A stretch of DNA of 64,000 bases, from contig OZ244561.1 of NCBI GenBank assembly GCA_965217585.1, positions 384,001 to 448,000 on the forward strand, written 5' to 3'. How positions within the stretch are numbered: the first letter of the stretch is position 1; the number at the start of each line of letters is the position of its first letter. Positions 32,401 to 37,715 of the stretch are shown here, piece by piece. The stretch comes from Candidatus Latescibacterota bacterium. GTDB lineage: Bacteria > Latescibacterota > UBA2968 > UBA8231. The notes beneath the pieces were generated by a model. That model saw nothing but the letters and a program-made list of their open reading frames with translations, ran no database searches and had not been told where the DNA came from. The position numbers and the translations under genes were made by a program.

Positions 32401-34377
32401 ATGTCGAAACAAGCCAAGCAAACTGCCAGCGACGAACTAGTGCGGATCGCGGCCGACATTCCCTTCATATCGCCGCCCCAGTGGGCCATTCTCGAGCGCA
32501 GCCTCATCGACCTAATGAACCGAGCCATCGAACCCGTGCTGGCCCGCTACGTACACGGCGACGGCTCGACCATGTGGCCGCCGACCGACGAGATGACCAA
32601 CTGGGACGGGTTGGACGACGCGTACGAGAGCTTCCACAACTGGCCCCTATTCTACCTGCTCGGCGGCGACGACCGCCTGCTCGAAGTGTCGAACCGGGAA
32701 TTCAACGCCATCACGCTGCAATTCACCCGCTACCAATCCGGCCACGGCCATCCCATGGTCATCAAGGAGTACGAACAGGGCTACGACTGGATGCACCAGG
32801 GCGAGGGGTACGTATTCTTTTATCTGTTGTGCATGGCCGACCCGACCAATACCACCAACCGCCGCCGAGCGCGGCGCTTCGCCGGATTCTATCTGAACGA
32901 GGATCCAGAGGCGCTCAACTACGACGAGCAGCACAAGATCATCAAATCCCCGCACAACGGCAGCAAAGGTCCAGCACAGCGCAACTTCGAGCGCTACTAC
33001 ACCAAGTACCGCTATGAAGAATGGCAGAAGTGGCCCCTGCCCTTTTACGACGTGCCCGGCTGCCAAACGGTCGAAGACCTGCGGGATCCGGAGATCGAGG
33101 ATCGGATGGGTCAGGCGGTGATAGAGCGCTTCGCTCGCGGCGACTGCGCCGCCAATCTGGCGGCCACCAGCATGGTCACCAACGCGTACCTATTCACCGG
33201 GGACGTCAAATGCAAACAATGGGTGGAGGAGTACGTCGGCGCTTGGATGGAACGACTAGCGGCCAACAACGGCATTCTGCCGGACAACGTGGGGCTGTCG
33301 GGCGAGGTTGGGGAGTACTTGGGCGGCCGGTGGTACGGCGGGTACTACGGCTGGACCTGGCCCCACGGCTGGCACACCATGGGCGATGCTGTGCTCAGTG
33401 GTGCCGAGAACGCCATGCTGGTATCCGGCGATCTGCAGTATCTAGAACTCGCCCGTTCGCAGATCGACGTGATGATGGAAAACGGCGAAATCCGCAACGG
33501 CACCCTGTACGTGCCCCACTTCCACCACGACAAGGGCTGGGACGGGTATAGTCCCATGCAGACCCGCTTTATGGCGCACTTGTGGAGCATTTCGCTGGAT
33601 CCGGCGGATATGGAGCGCATCGACCAACAACGCGACCGCCAAGCCCGGGACTGGGAAGCGGTGCAGGTCCTCTCGCCCAAGGATCGCGGCGGTCACGAAG
33701 CCCCCTGGCTGGCGTACCTACGCGGCGAGTTCCCCGACTATCCCGAGGAGATTCTGCGCTATAACCACGCCCAAGTGTACCAGCGGCTGGCGTACATGGC
33801 GCACGACGGGCAGGACCCCGCCACGTACGGCGATCACTACCTGCAGGTGCGCAACCCGATCACGACCGAAGGCCTAGTGCAACTGACCATGGGCGGGCCG
33901 CTCTTCAACTTCAACGGTGGGCTGCTGCTGGTGCGGCTGCGCTATTTCGACTGGCAGCGCCGGCGGCCGGGGTTGCCCCGAGACGTGGCCGCGTTGGTGG
34001 AAAAGCTGGCACCCGAGAGCGCGGTTTTGCGGCTAGTCAACCTCAGCGCCGTGGAGGAACGGGAACTGGTCGTCCAGGCCGGCGCTTTTGGCGAGCACCA
34101 GTTTACCACGGCGCGTTTCCAGACCCTAGCGGCTGGCCGGAGTCACGATGTGTTCAGCAGCGCCGAGTGGTTGGACGAGGACGCGTACAGGACGGCGATG
34201 GCCCGTGAAGTCGAGGAGTGCGAAGTGGCCATCAACGCTCCCTGCTTCCGGGTCGCGCTCCGTCCAAGCTCCGAGATAAGACTGGAGCTGGGGATGAAGC
34301 GCTTTGTCAACACCCCCTCGTACAAGCTGCCTTGGGCTGCCACCGAGGAGCGGCCCGGTCCCAGCGACAAAAGCTAG
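32401..34377 (+). CDS. Conserved hypothetical cytoplasmic protein (aromatic-rich, possibly an alpha/alpha-toroid enzyme)
   Basis: 658-aa ORF with strong codon bias and motifs DDAYESFHNWP, YDWMHQGEG, GGYYGWTWPHG, RRRPGLP. Function not recognised. Confidence 0.8.
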   Translation: MSKQAKQTASDELVRIAADIPFISPPQWAILERSLIDLMNRAIEPVLARYVHGDGSTMWPPTDEMTNWDGLDDAYESFHNWPLFYLLGGDDRLLEVSNREFNAITLQFTRYQSGHGHPMVIKEYEQGYDWMHQGEGYVFFYLLCMADPTNTTNRRRARRFAGFYLNEDPEALNYDEQHKIIKSPHNGSKGPAQRNFERYYTKYRYEEWQKWPLPFYDVPGCQTVEDLRDPEIEDRMGQAVIERFARGDCAANLAATSMVTNAYLFTGDVKCKQWVEEYVGAWMERLAANNGILPDNVGLSGEVGEYLGGRWYGGYYGWTWPHGWHTMGDAVLSGAENAMLVSGDLQYLELARSQIDVMMENGEIRNGTLYVPHFHHDKGWDGYSPMQTRFMAHLWSISLDPADMERIDQQRDRQARDWEAVQVLSPKDRGGHEAPWLAYLRGEFPDYPEEILRYNHAQVYQRLAYMAHDGQDPATYGDHYLQVRNPITTEGLVQLTMGGPLFNFNGGLLLVRLRYFDWQRRRPGLPRDVAALVEKLAPESAVLRLVNLSAVEERELVVQAGAFGEHQFTTARFQTLAAGRSHDVFSSAEWLDEDAYRTAMAREVEECEVAINAPCFRVALRPSSEIRLELGMKRFVNTPSYKLPWAATEERPGPSDKS

Positions 34378-34417
34378 GACTTAGTGGTCTTTCAATTAAG
34401 TTTATTGCCTGAATCCA

Positions 34418-34450
34418 CTGGATTCCCGCTTTCGCGGGAGTGACGTCATT
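34418..34450. repeat. REP-like palindromic element (inverted copy) plus the first bases GTCATT of the interrupted second copy
   Basis: ctggattcccgctttcgcgggagtgac is the reverse complement of gtcactcccgcgaaagcgggaatccag and is followed directly by gtcatt. Confidence 0.85.
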
Positions 34451-34464
34451 TGTATGTTGCAAAA

Positions 34465-34638
34465 GCCTTTCAGATTGGCCAATCTGAAAGGCCTGCGTGA
34501 GGGGCGCGTCGTCCGTCATTGGGTGAGCAGGCACGACAGTGCCCACGGCACCGTGCGGGAGTAAGACACCCCTCACGCTAGGTTGTCGCTCCGAACAGAT
34601 ACAGGGGCCTTGGGCCCGTATTACAAGTGTGGAGGACA
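34465..34638 (+). ncRNA. IS110 bridge RNA (5' hairpin, target-binding loop, donor-binding loop)
   Basis: 5' hairpin 34465-34492. Target loop closed by gcgtgagggg/cccctcacgc with guides cgtcatt (34514-34520) and gcgggagt (34555-34562). Donor loop closed by tgtc-ctcc/ggag-gaca with guides acagatac (34595-34602) and tacaagt (34622-34628). Exact ends are approximate. Confidence 0.85.
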
Positions 34639-34667
34639 GCACCCATTATAACAGGGAGGCTACCAGC

Positions 34668-35609
34668 ATGAAAGTCGTTGCCGGTATAGACGTAGGAAAA
34701 AGCAGTCTGGACGTGTCGGTGTCGGCGGGTCCGGTGCGTCGATTCGACAACGCCCCCGCGGGCCTTTCGGCCCTGGTGGGCTGGTTGGAGCGCGAGGGGG
34801 CGACCCACGTGGTGTGTGAATCGACCGGGGGCTATGAGCGGGAAGTGGTGCGACGGTTGCGGAGCACGGCATGGTCGGTGCACATAGCGCACCCCAACCG
34901 AGTGCGCCACTTCGCGCGGGCGGCTGGCCGCCAAGCCAAGACCGACGCGCTGGACGCGCAGATGCTGTCGCGGTATGGGCAGGTATTCGAGGTGCCTAGC
35001 TCGGTGGCGGCGGCGGCGGACAGTGAGGTCCTGCAAGACCTGCTGCGCCGACGCAAGCAGTTGGTGGACCAGCGCGTGCAGGAGCGCCATCGGCTGGACC
35101 AAGGACGGACCGAAGCCGCCCGCACCTCTACCCAGCGGCACCTCCAGTGGCTGGATGAAGAGATCGGACGGTTGGAAGAGGAATACCGCAAGGCGTTGGA
35201 AAACAGCGGCGAGTTGTCCGAGTCCGCGGCCCTGTACCGGAGTGTGCCGGGCGTGGGCGAGCTGACCGCGGCCACGCTGGTAGTGTATCTGCCGGAGTTG
35301 GGGCAGTACCGTGGAAAGGAGTTGACCTCGCTGGTGGGACTGGCCCCGTGGTCCAACGACAGTGGGCGCCAGCAGGGGTATCGCTCGATCCGGGGCGGAC
35401 GGGGAACCGTGCGTAGGGTGTTGTACCTGGCCGCCTTGTCGGCGATACGCTACAACGACGACCTGAGCCGTTTCTATCAGGGACTGCGCCAGCGGGGCAA
35501 GACGGGCAAGGTGGCGGTGGTGGCGGTGATGCGCAAGCTGCTGCTGTTGCTGAACGCCATTGCCCATCGAGGAACGCCCTGGGTGGAACACCAGGCCCCA
35601 GCAGGGTAG
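34668..35609 (+). CDS. IS110 family transposase/recombinase
   Basis: DEDD RuvC-like residues (GIDVGK, CESTGGYE, KTDALDA), Tnp domain SVPGVG, LVGLAPWSNDSG (catalytic Ser), GGRGTVR, AVMRKLL. GGGAGG RBS before ATG 34668. Confidence 0.97.
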   Translation: MKVVAGIDVGKSSLDVSVSAGPVRRFDNAPAGLSALVGWLEREGATHVVCESTGGYEREVVRRLRSTAWSVHIAHPNRVRHFARAAGRQAKTDALDAQMLSRYGQVFEVPSSVAAAADSEVLQDLLRRRKQLVDQRVQERHRLDQGRTEAARTSTQRHLQWLDEEIGRLEEEYRKALENSGELSESAALYRSVPGVGELTAATLVVYLPELGQYRGKELTSLVGLAPWSNDSGRQQGYRSIRGGRGTVRRVLYLAALSAIRYNDDLSRFYQGLRQRGKTGKVAVVAVMRKLLLLLNAIAHRGTPWVEHQAPAG

Positions 35610-35617
35610 AAAAGGGC

Positions 35618-35623
35618 TGGACG
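35618..35623 (+). promoter_or_regulatory. Outward-facing -35 box in the IS right end (pairs with -10 TATGTT at 34453-34458 after circularisation)
   Basis: The circle junction reads TGGACG-cagaacacagataCTtg (17 bp)-TATGTT. Confidence 0.65.
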
Positions 35624-35638
35624 CAGAACACAGATACT

Positions 35639-35659
35639 CCCGCGAAAGCGGGAATCCAG
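35639..35659. repeat. Right part of the interrupted REP-like element
   Basis: cccgcgaaagcgggaatccag directly follows the IS core CT. Confidence 0.85.
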
Positions 35660-35750
35660 ACTAAAAGACCAAAATAAAAATGGTAACTAACTTTTTTGAA
35701 ACACCACTTAGTTTCCCACCTGAATGCTGTAAACAGACGGAGCCAGACGC

Positions 35751-37715
35751 ATGCCCAAGAATCTGTTGCCCAATGCGAGTTTCGAACTGGATTTCGGCGA
35801 GGGATTGTGCACCAACTGGGGGGATTTGCAAAACGAATTGACCCTGCCGCTCTCCCTCACGGATCAGCAGGAGCGCACGCCGCCCCGCATCGAGGCCCGC
35901 GACGATGCCGTGGACGGCGAACACGCCGCCCGCCTAGCGCTCGACCCAACAGCGGACAGCGGCGCGGTCGGCCACCTCACCTCGCCGGTCGTAGCGGTCA
36001 AGCCGGGACAGGTCTATACCCTGTCGGTGTACGCCCGCAGCGACGACCCTTCAGCCCAGCTCGAACTGGGCCTGTGGACGCGGCCGCTGGACTTTCGGCA
36101 GAAGCCGAGTAGGGTCAGCCAACCCCGGCAATTGTCCGCGGACTGGGCCCAGTATCAATTCACTCTAGTCACCGACGAGTTGGAAGACCGGGCCGTAGCG
36201 GACCTGACCGTGCGCGCCGACCAAGCCGGCGCGGCCCACTTCGACGCCGTCCAACTGGAGGAAGGTCCACGGGCCACCGAGTTCGAGACGCGCTGGCCCG
36301 TGGAAGTGGCCCTGCGTAGCAGGCGGAAAAATATCCTGCATCTCGCTGGCGAACCTTTCGAACTATCCCTCACCGCGTACAATAGCACGGACGAGCCAGT
36401 AGAAAAACACGTGGAGATGACCATTGCCAGCGTGCCCGAGGGCGTGCAGGTATTCGAACACGCCGTGTCCGAGCCGGTTCCGCCGGGCCGGCGGGAAGGC
36501 CCACTGCGCCTAAACTTTTCCTTGGTGGGTGCCTTTCGCGCCCGGGTCTACGACCACGGCGGCCGACTGACCTCGGTCGACGACCACCTGTTCAGCGTCC
36601 ATCCGGTGATCGAACGGGACTTTCAGGGCATTCTCTACTCCCGTCATGGCGAGCTGCAAAAGCCGCTGCCGGCCGAGCGCGTCTGGCTGCCCTGGACCAA
36701 CGAGAAGAGCTGGTACGCCGACCCGCCCGCCGGGCTTACCCTCACCGACGCCGGCACCATCTACGTGGCCGCCAGCGACGGCACCAGCCTATTGCATACC
36801 CGCGACGGCGGCCGCACTTGGGACGTCCTCGAGGTGGAGTGCCCGGTCCTGACCGTCTTGCGCGACGGCGCGCTGGTGGGCCAGACCGTCGAAGACGGCG
36901 ATGTGGTGCTCTATCGCTCGACGGACGAGGGCCGCACTTTTCAGCCGCTCAGCCGCCTAGCCGGGCTCGGGGCCGTGCAGGTGGGTCCCATAACCGAATT
37001 GGCGGACGGCGCGCTGATCTGGCCGATCGGCCGGGAAGCTCCCGAAGGCCACGGTCCCTCTATTGTGTACGCTTATCGCTCTGCCGACGAGGGTGCCACT
37101 TGGTCGGAGGGGGGCCCTATCTGTCCCGGCGGCGAACCGCAGATCGCCGAACTGTCGTCCGGTCGCCTGTTGGCGGCCGTGCGCAACAACCCTTCGCTCC
37201 ATGCCGACGACTGGCGGCGCGCCTTTGCCAACGAGATGCCCTGGCACCTGTGGATGCGCGCCTTTGGCTTTACCAACGTCACTTCCTACACCAAGCGGAT
37301 CATGTTGGCCGACTCCGACGACCGCGGTCTGACCTGGAACAATGTGCGGCCGGGCACCTTTCTCCTCGATGAAATGCACGGCCAAGTCCTGCCCCTGCCC
37401 GACGACCGCGTCGTCCTGCTCTACACCCATCGCGGTCCCTGGCCGCGCGGCGGCGAGCGAGCCAAGGTCAGCCGCGATCAGGGCCAAACCTGGGCTCAAG
37501 AACTCTATTACCTGAATGCGACCCCGGCCTATCCGGGGTATTCGGCCAGTTGCGTGCTGCCGCCCGACCTAGCCGATGGAGAACCTAACATGGTCCTCAG
37601 CGTAGTCGGCGAACGATCCGAGCGGATATGGGGCCATCCCGGTACCCAGCCGACCGCGGAGGGCATTGAAATGGCCCCGCGCATGCAGGCCATTCGCTGG
37701 CGTCCCCTGCGGTGA
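35751..37715 (+). CDS. Sialidase-like (BNR/Asp-box) protein with an N-terminal carbohydrate-binding-like domain
   Basis: NLLPNASFE...YTLSVYAR...FDAVQLEEG (CBM4/9-like). Asp boxes TRDGGRTW, STDEGRTF, SADEGATW, SDDRGLTW, SRDQGQTW. Confidence 0.8.
   Translation: MPKNLLPNASFELDFGEGLCTNWGDLQNELTLPLSLTDQQERTPPRIEARDDAVDGEHAARLALDPTADSGAVGHLTSPVVAVKPGQVYTLSVYARSDDPSAQLELGLWTRPLDFRQKPSRVSQPRQLSADWAQYQFTLVTDELEDRAVADLTVRADQAGAAHFDAVQLEEGPRATEFETRWPVEVALRSRRKNILHLAGEPFELSLTAYNSTDEPVEKHVEMTIASVPEGVQVFEHAVSEPVPPGRREGPLRLNFSLVGAFRARVYDHGGRLTSVDDHLFSVHPVIERDFQGILYSRHGELQKPLPAERVWLPWTNEKSWYADPPAGLTLTDAGTIYVAASDGTSLLHTRDGGRTWDVLEVECPVLTVLRDGALVGQTVEDGDVVLYRSTDEGRTFQPLSRLAGLGAVQVGPITELADGALIWPIGREAPEGHGPSIVYAYRSADEGATWSEGGPICPGGEPQIAELSSGRLLAAVRNNPSLHADDWRRAFANEMPWHLWMRAFGFTNVTSYTKRIMLADSDDRGLTWNNVRPGTFLLDEMHGQVLPLPDDRVVLLYTHRGPWPRGGERAKVSRDQGQTWAQELYYLNATPAYPGYSASCVLPPDLADGEPNMVLSVVGERSERIWGHPGTQPTAEGIEMAPRMQAIRWRPLR

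Follow-up and report, generated by a model that had tools for sequence, protein, structure and literature searches.

The interval 34451-35638 of the window, that is, of the whole stretch of 64,000 nucleotides analysed (contig OZ244561.1, from a Candidatus Latescibacterota bacterium), is very probably a complete insertion sequence of the IS110 group that works like IS621. This 1,188-bp element is an ordinary new example of a recently described, large class, the bridge-RNA IS110 elements, and it may be active and reprogrammable, as we infer from its sequence. The positions of its features are collected in Table 1.

Table 1. Features of the element and of its flanks, with positions in the window.
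Feature	Position	Strand	Remarks
IS110-family element	34451..35638	+	1,188 bp; two identical genomic copies over exactly this span
Second REP-like hairpin copy, opposite orientation	34418..34441	-	Target context; 24-nt perfect inverted repeat with 35636-35659
Left target half-site CGTCA + core TT	34444..34450	+	Same in both copies; continuous with CCCGC in uninterrupted sites
-10 box TATGTT of putative junction promoter	34453..34458	+	Invariant in 11/11 sequences of alignment A1
5' stem-loop of bridge RNA	34465..34492	+	Perfect 14+14 palindrome
Target-binding loop module	34495..34578	+	Outer stem 34495-34504/34569-34578; inner stem-loop 34522-34552
Left target guide (LTG) UCCGUCAUU	34512..34520	+	Last 7 nt equal the left flank
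Right target guide (RTG)	34555..34563	+	GCGGGAG (34555-34561) + two handshake-guide positions UA (34562-34563)
Donor-binding loop module	34584..34638	+	Outer stem 34584-34592/34631-34638; inner hairpin 34605-34617
Left donor guide (LDG) ACAGAUAC	34595..34602	+	Equals the right end 35630-35637
Right donor guide (RDG) AU-U-ACAAG + handshake UG (34628-34629)	34620..34629	+	UACAAG complementary to CTTGTA at the joined ends
Shine-Dalgarno-like GGGAGG	34654..34659	+	AGG(A/C) block before the ATG conserved (alignment A1)
Recombinase gene	34668..35609	+	313 aa; both IS110 domains
-35 box TGGACG of putative junction promoter	35618..35623	+	17-nt spacer; TTGAC there in 25/25 orthologue rows with a right end
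Left donor half-site ACAGATA + donor core CT	35630..35638	+	Right end AACACAGATACT identical in 27/27 rows with a right end
Right target half-site CCCGC + rest of REP hairpin (CCCGC-GAAA-GCGGG-AATCCAG)	35639..35659	+	Target, not element

The ends of the element are fixed to the base by uninterrupted paralogous sites in the same genome, and its flanks, once the element is deleted, align gap-free to C1:862557-862693 (97.1%) and C1:1979978-1979834 (93.8%). The genome contains two copies at different loci, the one in the window and L001, and their 100% identity over 1,188 bp points to recent movement. Outside the element, only 7 flank bases on the left and 10 on the right are common to both copies. 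Since a T is found at both junctions, the element boundary slides by one base. Neither terminal inverted repeats nor a target duplication beyond the core were found, and the genes on either side of the intergenic repeat that received the insertion are unrelated. A 27-nt extra hairpin beside the second copy was considered as part of the insertion sequence and rejected, as it also occurs at two sites without the element. With the full element as query, blastn (distant mode) gave no match in any of the complete E. coli genomes, and Rfam 15 returned zero matches at E <= 1 on 34200-35900, so that either no model fits or none exists. Among the literature matches listed for IS110 with Latescibacter or sponge there is no mention of IS110; the orthologue tables of PMC11208160 may include the element or its lineage.

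The recombinase has the length given in the earlier note, and its ATG lies at 34668 and not at 34669. Its two domains were recognised by Pfam as DEDD_Tnp_IS110 (PF01548; residues 5-144, 1.2e-21) and Transposase_20 (PF02371; residues 189-271, 1.1e-15), and the protein also passes the NCBIfam model NF033542 ('IS110 family RNA-guided transposase'), with 202.4 bits where the cut-off is 140. Among the solved relatives, the best score corresponds to ISCro4 (9t56_A; residues 5-305, 4.5e-40), and IS621 (8wt6_A) aligns over the same residues at 1.5e-35. In the protein alignment D8, E51, D93, D96 and S232 stand opposite D11, E60, D102, D105 and S241 of IS621, the PDB chain numbering of which runs at +2 relative to the published residue numbers (PMC11208158). 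Thus, the DEDD and Ser residues, described previously as intact, are kept in the IS621 and ISCro4 alignments.

Upstream of the gene, the non-coding left end (217 nt) forms a 5' hairpin followed by two internal-loop modules. Its predicted fold has an energy of -94.2 kcal/mol (z = -4.08), a stability reached by 0 of 200 shuffles. The two-loop architecture of IS621 type, with its hairpin at 34465-34492, had been proposed from the single sequence and is now backed by covariation among orthologues (alignment A1, 11 sequences, used for covariation and for conservation of the -10 box): 92.7% of the cells pair across the 11 orthologues, against 44-52% when the partners are slid, and 18 pairs show double changes, a number reached by 0/500 shuffles. 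Changes on both sides affect 5/7 pairs of helix 1 (the 5' stem-loop) and, in the target module, 4/8 pairs of helix 2 and 8/12 of helix 3. The stems of the donor module are nearly invariant (7/8 pairs of helix 4 never vary), and they are therefore conserved yet uninformative for covariation. As a whole, alignment A1 shows guide loops that are kept and stems that vary.

As regards the search for relatives, a stringent regular expression written for the stem of the donor loop matched only 6 of the 80 pattern loci (L054-L133). An nhmmer profile built from A1 was used in its place and yielded 40 hits, distributed over 38 of 120 loci. The 15-mer pattern had further matches, the majority of which probably arose by chance in a collection of 596 Gb. 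In two runs from a single study, Logan contigs of RNA libraries span portions of 34465-34699 and of the ORF with 95-99% identity, contig cover not being equivalent to transcription, and those starting at 34465 probably break at the palindrome. The Logan contigs of public runs, which are assembled sequences only, contain no circle junction; where a contig skips about 1,190 bases, the joint corresponds to an uninterrupted copy of the repeat located elsewhere. These contigs count neither for nor against the proposed reading.

The matches between the loops and the DNA reported in the earlier note were recovered in full. Loop 1 carries CGTCATT at 34514-34520, equal to the left flank 34444-34450, and GCGGGAGT at 34555-34562, the reverse complement of ACTCCCGC at 35636-35643; counted with the handshake positions, the reverse complement of the RTG, TACTCCCGC, equals the right junction at 9/9 positions. 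Loop 2 carries ACAGATAC, present at both 34595-34602 and 35630-35637, and TACAAGT at 34622-34628, whose reverse complement, ACTTGTA, is absent from the window and is created only by joining the right end to the left. Thus, the LDG and the RDG of the element match its own joined ends. The RDG is probably discontiguous and reads AU-xx-GCAAG in the orthologues, and the handshake UG (34628-34629) matches target positions 6-7, CA. When the 217-nt left end was subjected to 200,000 mononucleotide shuffles, the four guide words (the second represented by the 9-mer GCGGGAGTA) were seen 1,517, 315, 461 and 1,655 times, and two or more of them together in 22 shuffles, within which any co-occurrence of all four is included.

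The relatives of the element extend this correspondence to other targets. RTG variants that predict CCCGC, CCGGC, CCTGC, GCGAG and CCCGT adjoin those same flanks (five out of five), and the prediction matches the right flank at 5/5 bases in 38 of 44 insertions, the remaining six departing from it by 1-2 bases. Permuted pairings of RTGs and flanks gave a mean of 15.1 matches and a maximum of 25, and none of 20,000 permutations reached 38. Two variants are found beside their own flanks within a single MAG, OZ244814.1, in which L011-L016 adjoin CCGGC and L119 adjoins CCCGT.

The pairing of guides with DNA is imperfect. The LTG matches the flank at 7/9 positions in both genomic copies, and at 9/9 in several Chloroflexota copies; at position 3 it agrees with the flank in the majority of elements, its last base is A or G, the flank having T, in the relatives from Binatia, Nitrospirales and Thermodesulfobacteriota, and the LTGs of L032 and L036 are swapped relative to expectation. 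In several orthologues the LDG departs from the invariant right end by 1-2 mismatches (e.g., ACCGAUAC, ACGGAUAC and ACAGAUCC).

The target, CGTCA-TT-CCCGC, is located in a REP-like hairpin, and 23 hairpin copies in the genome carry the prefix GTCA-N-T, in agreement with the distinct REP specificity suggested earlier. Taking into account that the target comprises the 5' flank and the first stem arm of this hairpin, the element lands in non-coding repeats. The site was correctly given in the earlier note, and only the T/C ambiguity attributed to its core has to be withdrawn: uninterrupted sites show T at that base, position 8, in 22/23 cases in the genome and in 44/45 at other loci. The core is TT at the left junction in 27 of the 28 rows that include it, and CT at the right one in all 27 rows with a right end. 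Thus, the target and donor core dinucleotides of the window element are not identical, and share only the second base (T), which gives no ground for exclusion because non-CT cores are functional in IS621. As for the origin of the repeat, a RAYT was considered as its driver, and found no support: at a completeness of 94.6%, the genome gave no match to PF01797 (Y1 transposase).

Across the joined ends, the sequence TGGACG-17-TATGTT, to which attention had already been drawn, is indeed built just upstream of the RNA. The -35 motif and the spacing are conserved in the orthologues, the TGGACG of the window element being weaker than their TTGAC. The genome, in its assembled contigs, lacks the word ACAGATACTTGTAT that the joined ends would form.

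The element would be excised as a circle or single-stranded circle, and the joining of its ends would generate both the donor site ACAGATA-CT-TGTAT and a promoter of sigma-70 type, with the -35 box from the right end and the -10 box from the left, for the transcription of the bridge RNA. A recombinase dimer on the target loop would then read genomic CGTCA-TT-CCCGC, whose bottom strand would be bound by the left guide and whose top strand by the right one, and a second dimer, on the donor loop, would read the junction. The equivalents of Ser232 would cut the top strands after the core, and, upon strand exchange, the two bases 3' of each right guide would pair with the incoming strand (handshake). 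The expected product would retain the top-strand sequence, its left and right junctions carrying TT and CT, respectively. This junction asymmetry fits the top-strand-determined integration referred to in two abstracts (10.1101/2025.10.25.684509 and 10.64898/2026.08.31.748434).

It could be argued that the element is intact but nearly silent, a T-to-G change having weakened its -35 box, so that little bridge RNA would be made and the two copies would be relics. The element has TGGACG where 25/25 orthologue rows with a right end have TTGAC, and it is present in only 2 copies against 23 potential hairpin targets; therefore, its activity may be low. However, the complete identity of the copies over 1,188 bp points to recent movement, TGGACG keeps 4/6 consensus positions and the 17-nt spacing, the sigma-70 consensus may not be that of this phylum, and the RNA of IS621 is likewise reported to be weakly made from integrated copies (PMC13626964). 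All in all, near silence is considered unlikely.

Two further readings would deny the element its bridge RNA or its present limits, and both are far less probable. In one of them the left end does no more than provide the transposase mRNA with a structured 5' leader, the palindromic flanks account for the guide matches, and the protein chooses the site by reading the hairpin. The target is certainly a hairpin repeat, some guide positions mismatch, and a target stem-loop is reported to add specificity in the case of ISPpu10 (preprint 10.64898/2026.03.19.712850). However, the donor guides have their counterparts in the ends of the element itself, and these ends are no palindromic repeats; the five RTG variants track five flanks, including the unrelated GCGAG and two within one genome; the loops are conserved while the stems co-vary; and the architecture is that of the experimentally solved IS621 RNA, all of which makes a simple leader highly improbable. 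The other reading, in which the 24-bp perfect inverted repeats at 34418-34441 and 35636-35659 delimit a conventional transposon, takes these repeats around the element at face value, and deserves practically no credence. The left flank of the second copy is different, and since L001 lacks the arm 34418-34441, this arm does not belong to the element as a terminal inverted repeat, and that interpretation was rejected. Moreover, the arms are REP hairpin copies that are also found without the element, beyond 34451 and 35638 the two copies have no more than 7 and 10 target bases in common, and the protein is of DEDD/Ser and not of DDE type.

Beyond the bridge-RNA insertion sequence itself, a broader history can be put forward tentatively, and it is more doubtful than probable: a single IS110 lineage would have followed one REP hairpin family (ATTCCC-N8-GGGAAT) through MAGs labelled as at least six phylum-level groups, its donor ends and left guide remaining almost unchanged and its right guide being retuned to the stem variant of each host. 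Here the first base of the core is not the same in target and donor, and therefore each natural insertion would record the strand inherited. If this were true, the record would be one-sided, the target base being kept at the left junction and the donor base at the right one, and would constitute a genomic footprint of top-strand-determined integration. The position of this core marker would show strand inheritance at integration, a question that bears on the debate between cut-and-paste and copy-and-paste.

From the standpoint of genome annotation, an IS110-family gene for an RNA-guided transposase, together with its RNA, is a routine result. Bridge recombinases are under development as genome-writing tools, so that orthologues with other guide lengths or core rules are useful parts; those worth mentioning here are the 7-nt right target guide and the natural combination of a TT target core with a CT donor core. 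In addition, the family supplies natural within-genome controls for the co-variation of guide and target. The hairpin repeat and the insertion sequence may also be linked.

The recombinase of the prophages that target the Neisseria dRS3 repeat is one that we take to belong to the IS110 family. In PMC1797815, dRS3 is described as a site for a phage-encoded transposase/recombinase at which filamentous prophages integrate, and the target hairpin of the element, ATTCCCGC-N4-GCGGGAAT, fits the pattern published for dRS3, ATTCCC-N8-GGGAAT, a 12-base fit that may be coincidence. ISPpu10 of Pseudomonas putida (preprint 10.64898/2026.03.19.712850) is an IS110 element that has as natural targets the copies of a single intergenic repeat, in which a GC-rich stem-loop adjoins the guide-matched site. 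That stem-loop is a 5' extension, whereas the hairpin of the element lies 3' and includes the right half-site, both having been compared by description. The IS1111 group with seekRNA (PMC11187229) has the same DEDD transposase type and an RNA-guided choice of site. However, its members have subterminal inverted repeats, whereas none links the two ends of the element, whose RNA region is upstream of the gene, and membership in this group was rejected for lack of such a repeat.

The closest solved protein is the ISCro4 transposase (PDB 9t56), the likeness being limited to the protein. A close system is IS621 of E. coli (PMC11208160, PMC11208158; PDB 8WT6), whose recombinase shares about 31% identity of aligned residues (93/301 by hand count), together with the same pair of domains and the same D-E-D-D-S positions. 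Their targets differ (ATCAGGC-CT-AC in IS621 and CGTCA-TT-CCCGC here), the RTG has 7 nt in the element and 4 in IS621, and IS621 has one identical core at both ends, in contrast with the target TT and donor CT described above. The donor resembles that of IS621, as had been claimed, at positions 1 and 8-14, but not at positions 6-7 (TA here, AT in IS621), a partial check, as these IS621 donor positions were reconstructed from residue statements in PMC11208158. The LDG has 8 nt and ends at the first core base in both systems (A123-C130 in IS621), the RDG of IS621 (A157-U158/C162-G165) resembles the AU-xx-GCAAG of the orthologues, and that of the element likewise reads C8-T14, CTTGTAT. Finally, both systems have in common a non-coding left end made up of a 5' hairpin and of one loop each for target and donor, handshake bases 3' of the RTG and RDG, a promoter, putative in the element, split between the right and left ends, a REP target, and ends devoid of inverted repeats.

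The genome that contains the window consists of one contig (C1) of 7.32 Mb with 59.5% G+C, and holds exactly two copies of the element, 100% identical over 1,188 bp, with no further IS110-family genes found in it. Outside the element, the two loci have in common only a left-hand CGTCATT and a right-hand CCCGCGAAAG. When the element was deleted in silico by script and the joined flanks were aligned to the genome, those of the window copy matched, ungapped through the insertion point, the paralogous sites C1:862557-862693 (97.1%) and C1:1979978-1979834 (93.8%), and those of copy 2 matched three further sites. Because the flanks without the element align gap-free to uninterrupted sites, the insertion is taken to span 34451-35638, give or take a shared T, the insertion word being CGTCATT/CCCGC. 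Neither a target duplication nor terminal inverted repeats were found at the element. The window copy is surrounded by a perfect inverted repeat of 24 nt, which was rejected as a terminal feature: it stems from a further copy of the target repeat in inverted orientation and is absent at copy 2.

The window copy is intergenic and interrupts neither flanking gene. It lies within a repeat unit of about 140 bp that resembles a MITE or a REP doublet, made of two back-to-back inverted REP hairpin copies with loosely inverted outer ends (CTTAGTGGT...); this unit has three genomic copies, two of them uninterrupted (C1:862557-862693 and C1:1979834-1979978).

Features of the element and its surroundings (window coordinates)
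Feature	Position	Strand	Remarks
Left neighbour gene	32401-34377		658-aa protein; no Pfam match
Repeat unit, left part	34380-34450
Unoccupied CGTCA-CT-CCCGC	34434-34455	opposite strand of double repeat	perfect right-guide match including the CT core
Left target guide UCCGUCAUU	34512-34520		identical to the left flank in its last seven bases
Right target guide GCGGGAG	34555-34561		with the next bases, UA, complements the right junction TACTCCCGC, 9/9
Left donor guide ACAGAUAC	34595-34602		identical to the right end; ends at the first core base
Right donor guide UACAAG	34622-34627		base-pairs with CTTGTA at the end-to-end junction
Recombinase ORF, 313 aa	34668-35609	+	IS110 domains
Repeat unit, right part	35639-35710
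Right neighbour gene	35751-37715		654-aa protein; BNR/Asp-box (sialidase-like) repeats

The recombinase ORF leaves 217 non-coding bases before it and 29 after it. Its product contains PF01548 (1.2e-21) and PF02371 (1.1e-15), and passes the NCBI model 'IS110 family RNA-guided transposase' with 202.4 bits where 140 are required. Automatic naming of the gene is to be expected from NCBI's pipeline. Over residues 5-305 it matches the solved structures of the ISCro4 (4.5e-40) and IS621 (1.5e-35) recombinases, with about 93 of 301 positions (~31%, counted by hand on the printed alignment) identical to the latter. The residues given as essential in IS621 in passages of PMC11208158 (D11, E60, D102, D105 and S241) stand opposite D8, E51, D93, D96 and S232, which bears out the claim of the earlier note that the DEDD and Ser residues are intact.

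The guides were read by the IS621 rules set out in parts of PMC11208160 and PMC11208158, and every guide word that the earlier note had placed in the left end was found at its position. The UA that follows the right target guide is what the handshake model, in which two bases 3' of a right guide pair with the incoming strand, predicts for the donor strand; the UG after the right donor guide matches target positions 6-7 (CA). The left donor guide ends as does the 8-nt guide described for IS621, and at the position of the right donor guide orthologues carry AU-xx-GCAAG, the discontiguous form also described there.

The left end folds with z = -4.08, better than 200 of 200 shuffles. Protein-guided retrieval gave 49 related loci, the closest relatives coming from MAGs titled Latescibacterota (72-83% protein identity), Chloroflexota and Dehalococcoidia (60-63%) and Binatia (59-60%). 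From these relatives, 11 distinct left ends were aligned and scored on an IS621-like structure (5' hairpin, outer and inner stems of the first module, outer stem and hairpin of the second), with 92.7% of cells pairing as against 44-52% when the partners were slid. Double-sided changes affect 18 of 39 pairs, a number matched by 0 of 500 shuffles, and RNAalifold recovers the same stems. The 5' hairpin and first module supply this covariation, the second-module stems being nearly invariant. Across the alignment, loop segments are conserved and stems drift, the pattern expected of guides. Sixteen partial nhmmer matches (L104, L121, L155, L152, L097, L138, L057, L129 and L117 among them) are confined to the opening 60-140 positions of the profile, which take in the left junction, the 5' hairpin and a portion of the target loop; these may come from left ends that have been truncated, or from elements that differ further downstream. 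A role in transposition is described for a truncated target-loop RNA in the preprint 10.1101/2025.10.25.684509.

The agreement between guide and target was followed among relatives. The set was enlarged by a 15-base junction-word search, keeping the 38 of 120 loci confirmed by the nhmmer profile; elements whose right end lay beyond the fetched DNA were excluded, and L091 was dropped as the same place as L021. Right guide and right flank were read in 44 insertions, and agree perfectly in 38 (CCCGC in 23, CCGGC in 7, CCTGC in 5, GCGAG in 2, CCCGT in 1), the other six flanks being one or two bases off (three CCAGC, and CCGGT, CCGAG and CTCGT once each). Permuted flanks gave 15.1 perfect matches on average and at most 25, with 0 of 20,000 reaching 38; this permutation takes no account of element and repeat belonging to one genome. 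Even so, two guide variants (L011-L016 and L119) are present in a single MAG, each adjoining its own flank. In 8 of 10 elements the third base of the left guide also tracks the flank (U with T). Three lineages fit less well, the last base of this guide being A or G despite a flank T, and in several orthologues the left donor guide has one or two mismatches to the invariant right end. In L032 and L036, two elements of one Latescibacterota MAG, the RNAs are nearly the same and the left guides are crossed, each fitting the flank of the other (CGUGGAU beside CGTCATT in L032, CGUCAUU beside GGTGGAT in L036). This may reflect action in trans, one element's target loop directing insertion of the other's circle, since PMC11208158 reports that the complex draws its two loops from different RNA molecules.

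The donor core is CT and the target core TT, so that the first core base differs. In rows picked by protein similarity, independently of junction sequence, the left junction is TT in 27 of 28 (L017 has TC) and the right junction CT in 27 of 27; L036, outside these rows, has AT on the left. IS621 is cut after top-strand position 9 and bottom-strand position 9*, according to passages of PMC11208158. With such cuts and differing cores, double-strand exchange would leave a heteroduplex, whose random resolution would give both patterns; at the element and its relatives only the top-strand pattern is seen. The asymmetry is in line with how IS621 junctions inherit positions 6-7, and with the top-strand insertion and single-strand excision argued for in the abstracts of two preprints (10.1101/2025.10.25.684509 and 10.64898/2026.08.31.748434); displacement of the bottom-strand cut would account for it just as well. 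PMC11208160 reports non-CT cores to be less effective and to be helped by a 7-bp right guide; the right target guide here has 7 nt. At the window locus the element occupies a TT-core site on the + strand.

In the hairpin repeat GTCATT-CCCGC-GAAA-GCGGG-AATCCAG, the first arm and the 5' flank make up the target. Of the 23 hairpins in the genome that have the prefix GTCA-N-T, 22 carry T at core position 8, as do 44 of 45 in the other fetched loci. Although the REP hairpin has at least 23 copies, no Y1 transposase (IS200/RAYT-type, PF01797) was found in this genome (94.6% complete). An extra 27-nt hairpin (AACGTCACCCCGTGCCCCGACACGGGG) is nested in the REP hairpin loop to the right of copy 2 (locus L001, 2698-2724), at C1:2965948-2966009 and C1:4085873-4085927, and in the right flanks of L017, L018, L030, L040 and L036; it occurs in the genome with and without the element and, nearly identical, in Dehalococcoidia and Latescibacterota MAGs, conserved across phylum labels.

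Elements of the lineage that shares these ends (TGTATGTTG...AACACAGATACT) always lie beside this REP hairpin family, in MAGs labelled Latescibacterota, Chloroflexota/Dehalococcoidia, Binatia, Thermodesulfobacteriota, Nitrospirales and Poriferihabitaceae. Public-run contigs from several studies contain near-identical sequence, among them those of RNA libraries with the label sponge metagenome; assembled contigs of this kind attest presence only. The many taxon labels, the shared hairpin family and the sponge-metagenome libraries together suggest horizontal spread within one community type.

The joined ends read TGGACG, 17 nt, TATGTT, a candidate promoter. The -10 box is invariant in the alignment of left ends, and the -35 position reads TTGAC in 25 of 25 orthologue rows with a right end, so that the TGGACG of the element would be a weaker -35 box.

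Taken on its sequence, the element very probably works by the IS621-type bridge-RNA mechanism. It shows all the sequence-testable defining features of such elements save one, the core dinucleotide not being identical at both ends, which is a variation in detail. Membership of IS1111 was ruled out, as there are no subterminal inverted repeats. No DNA match of the element was found in E. coli genomes, and it is best regarded as a distant relative of IS621, from which it differs in having another target and a longer right guide. The bridge-RNA class is large and well described, PMC11208160 having analysed 1,054 recombinases together with 5,485 sequences of targets and donors, and the element is a further example of it.
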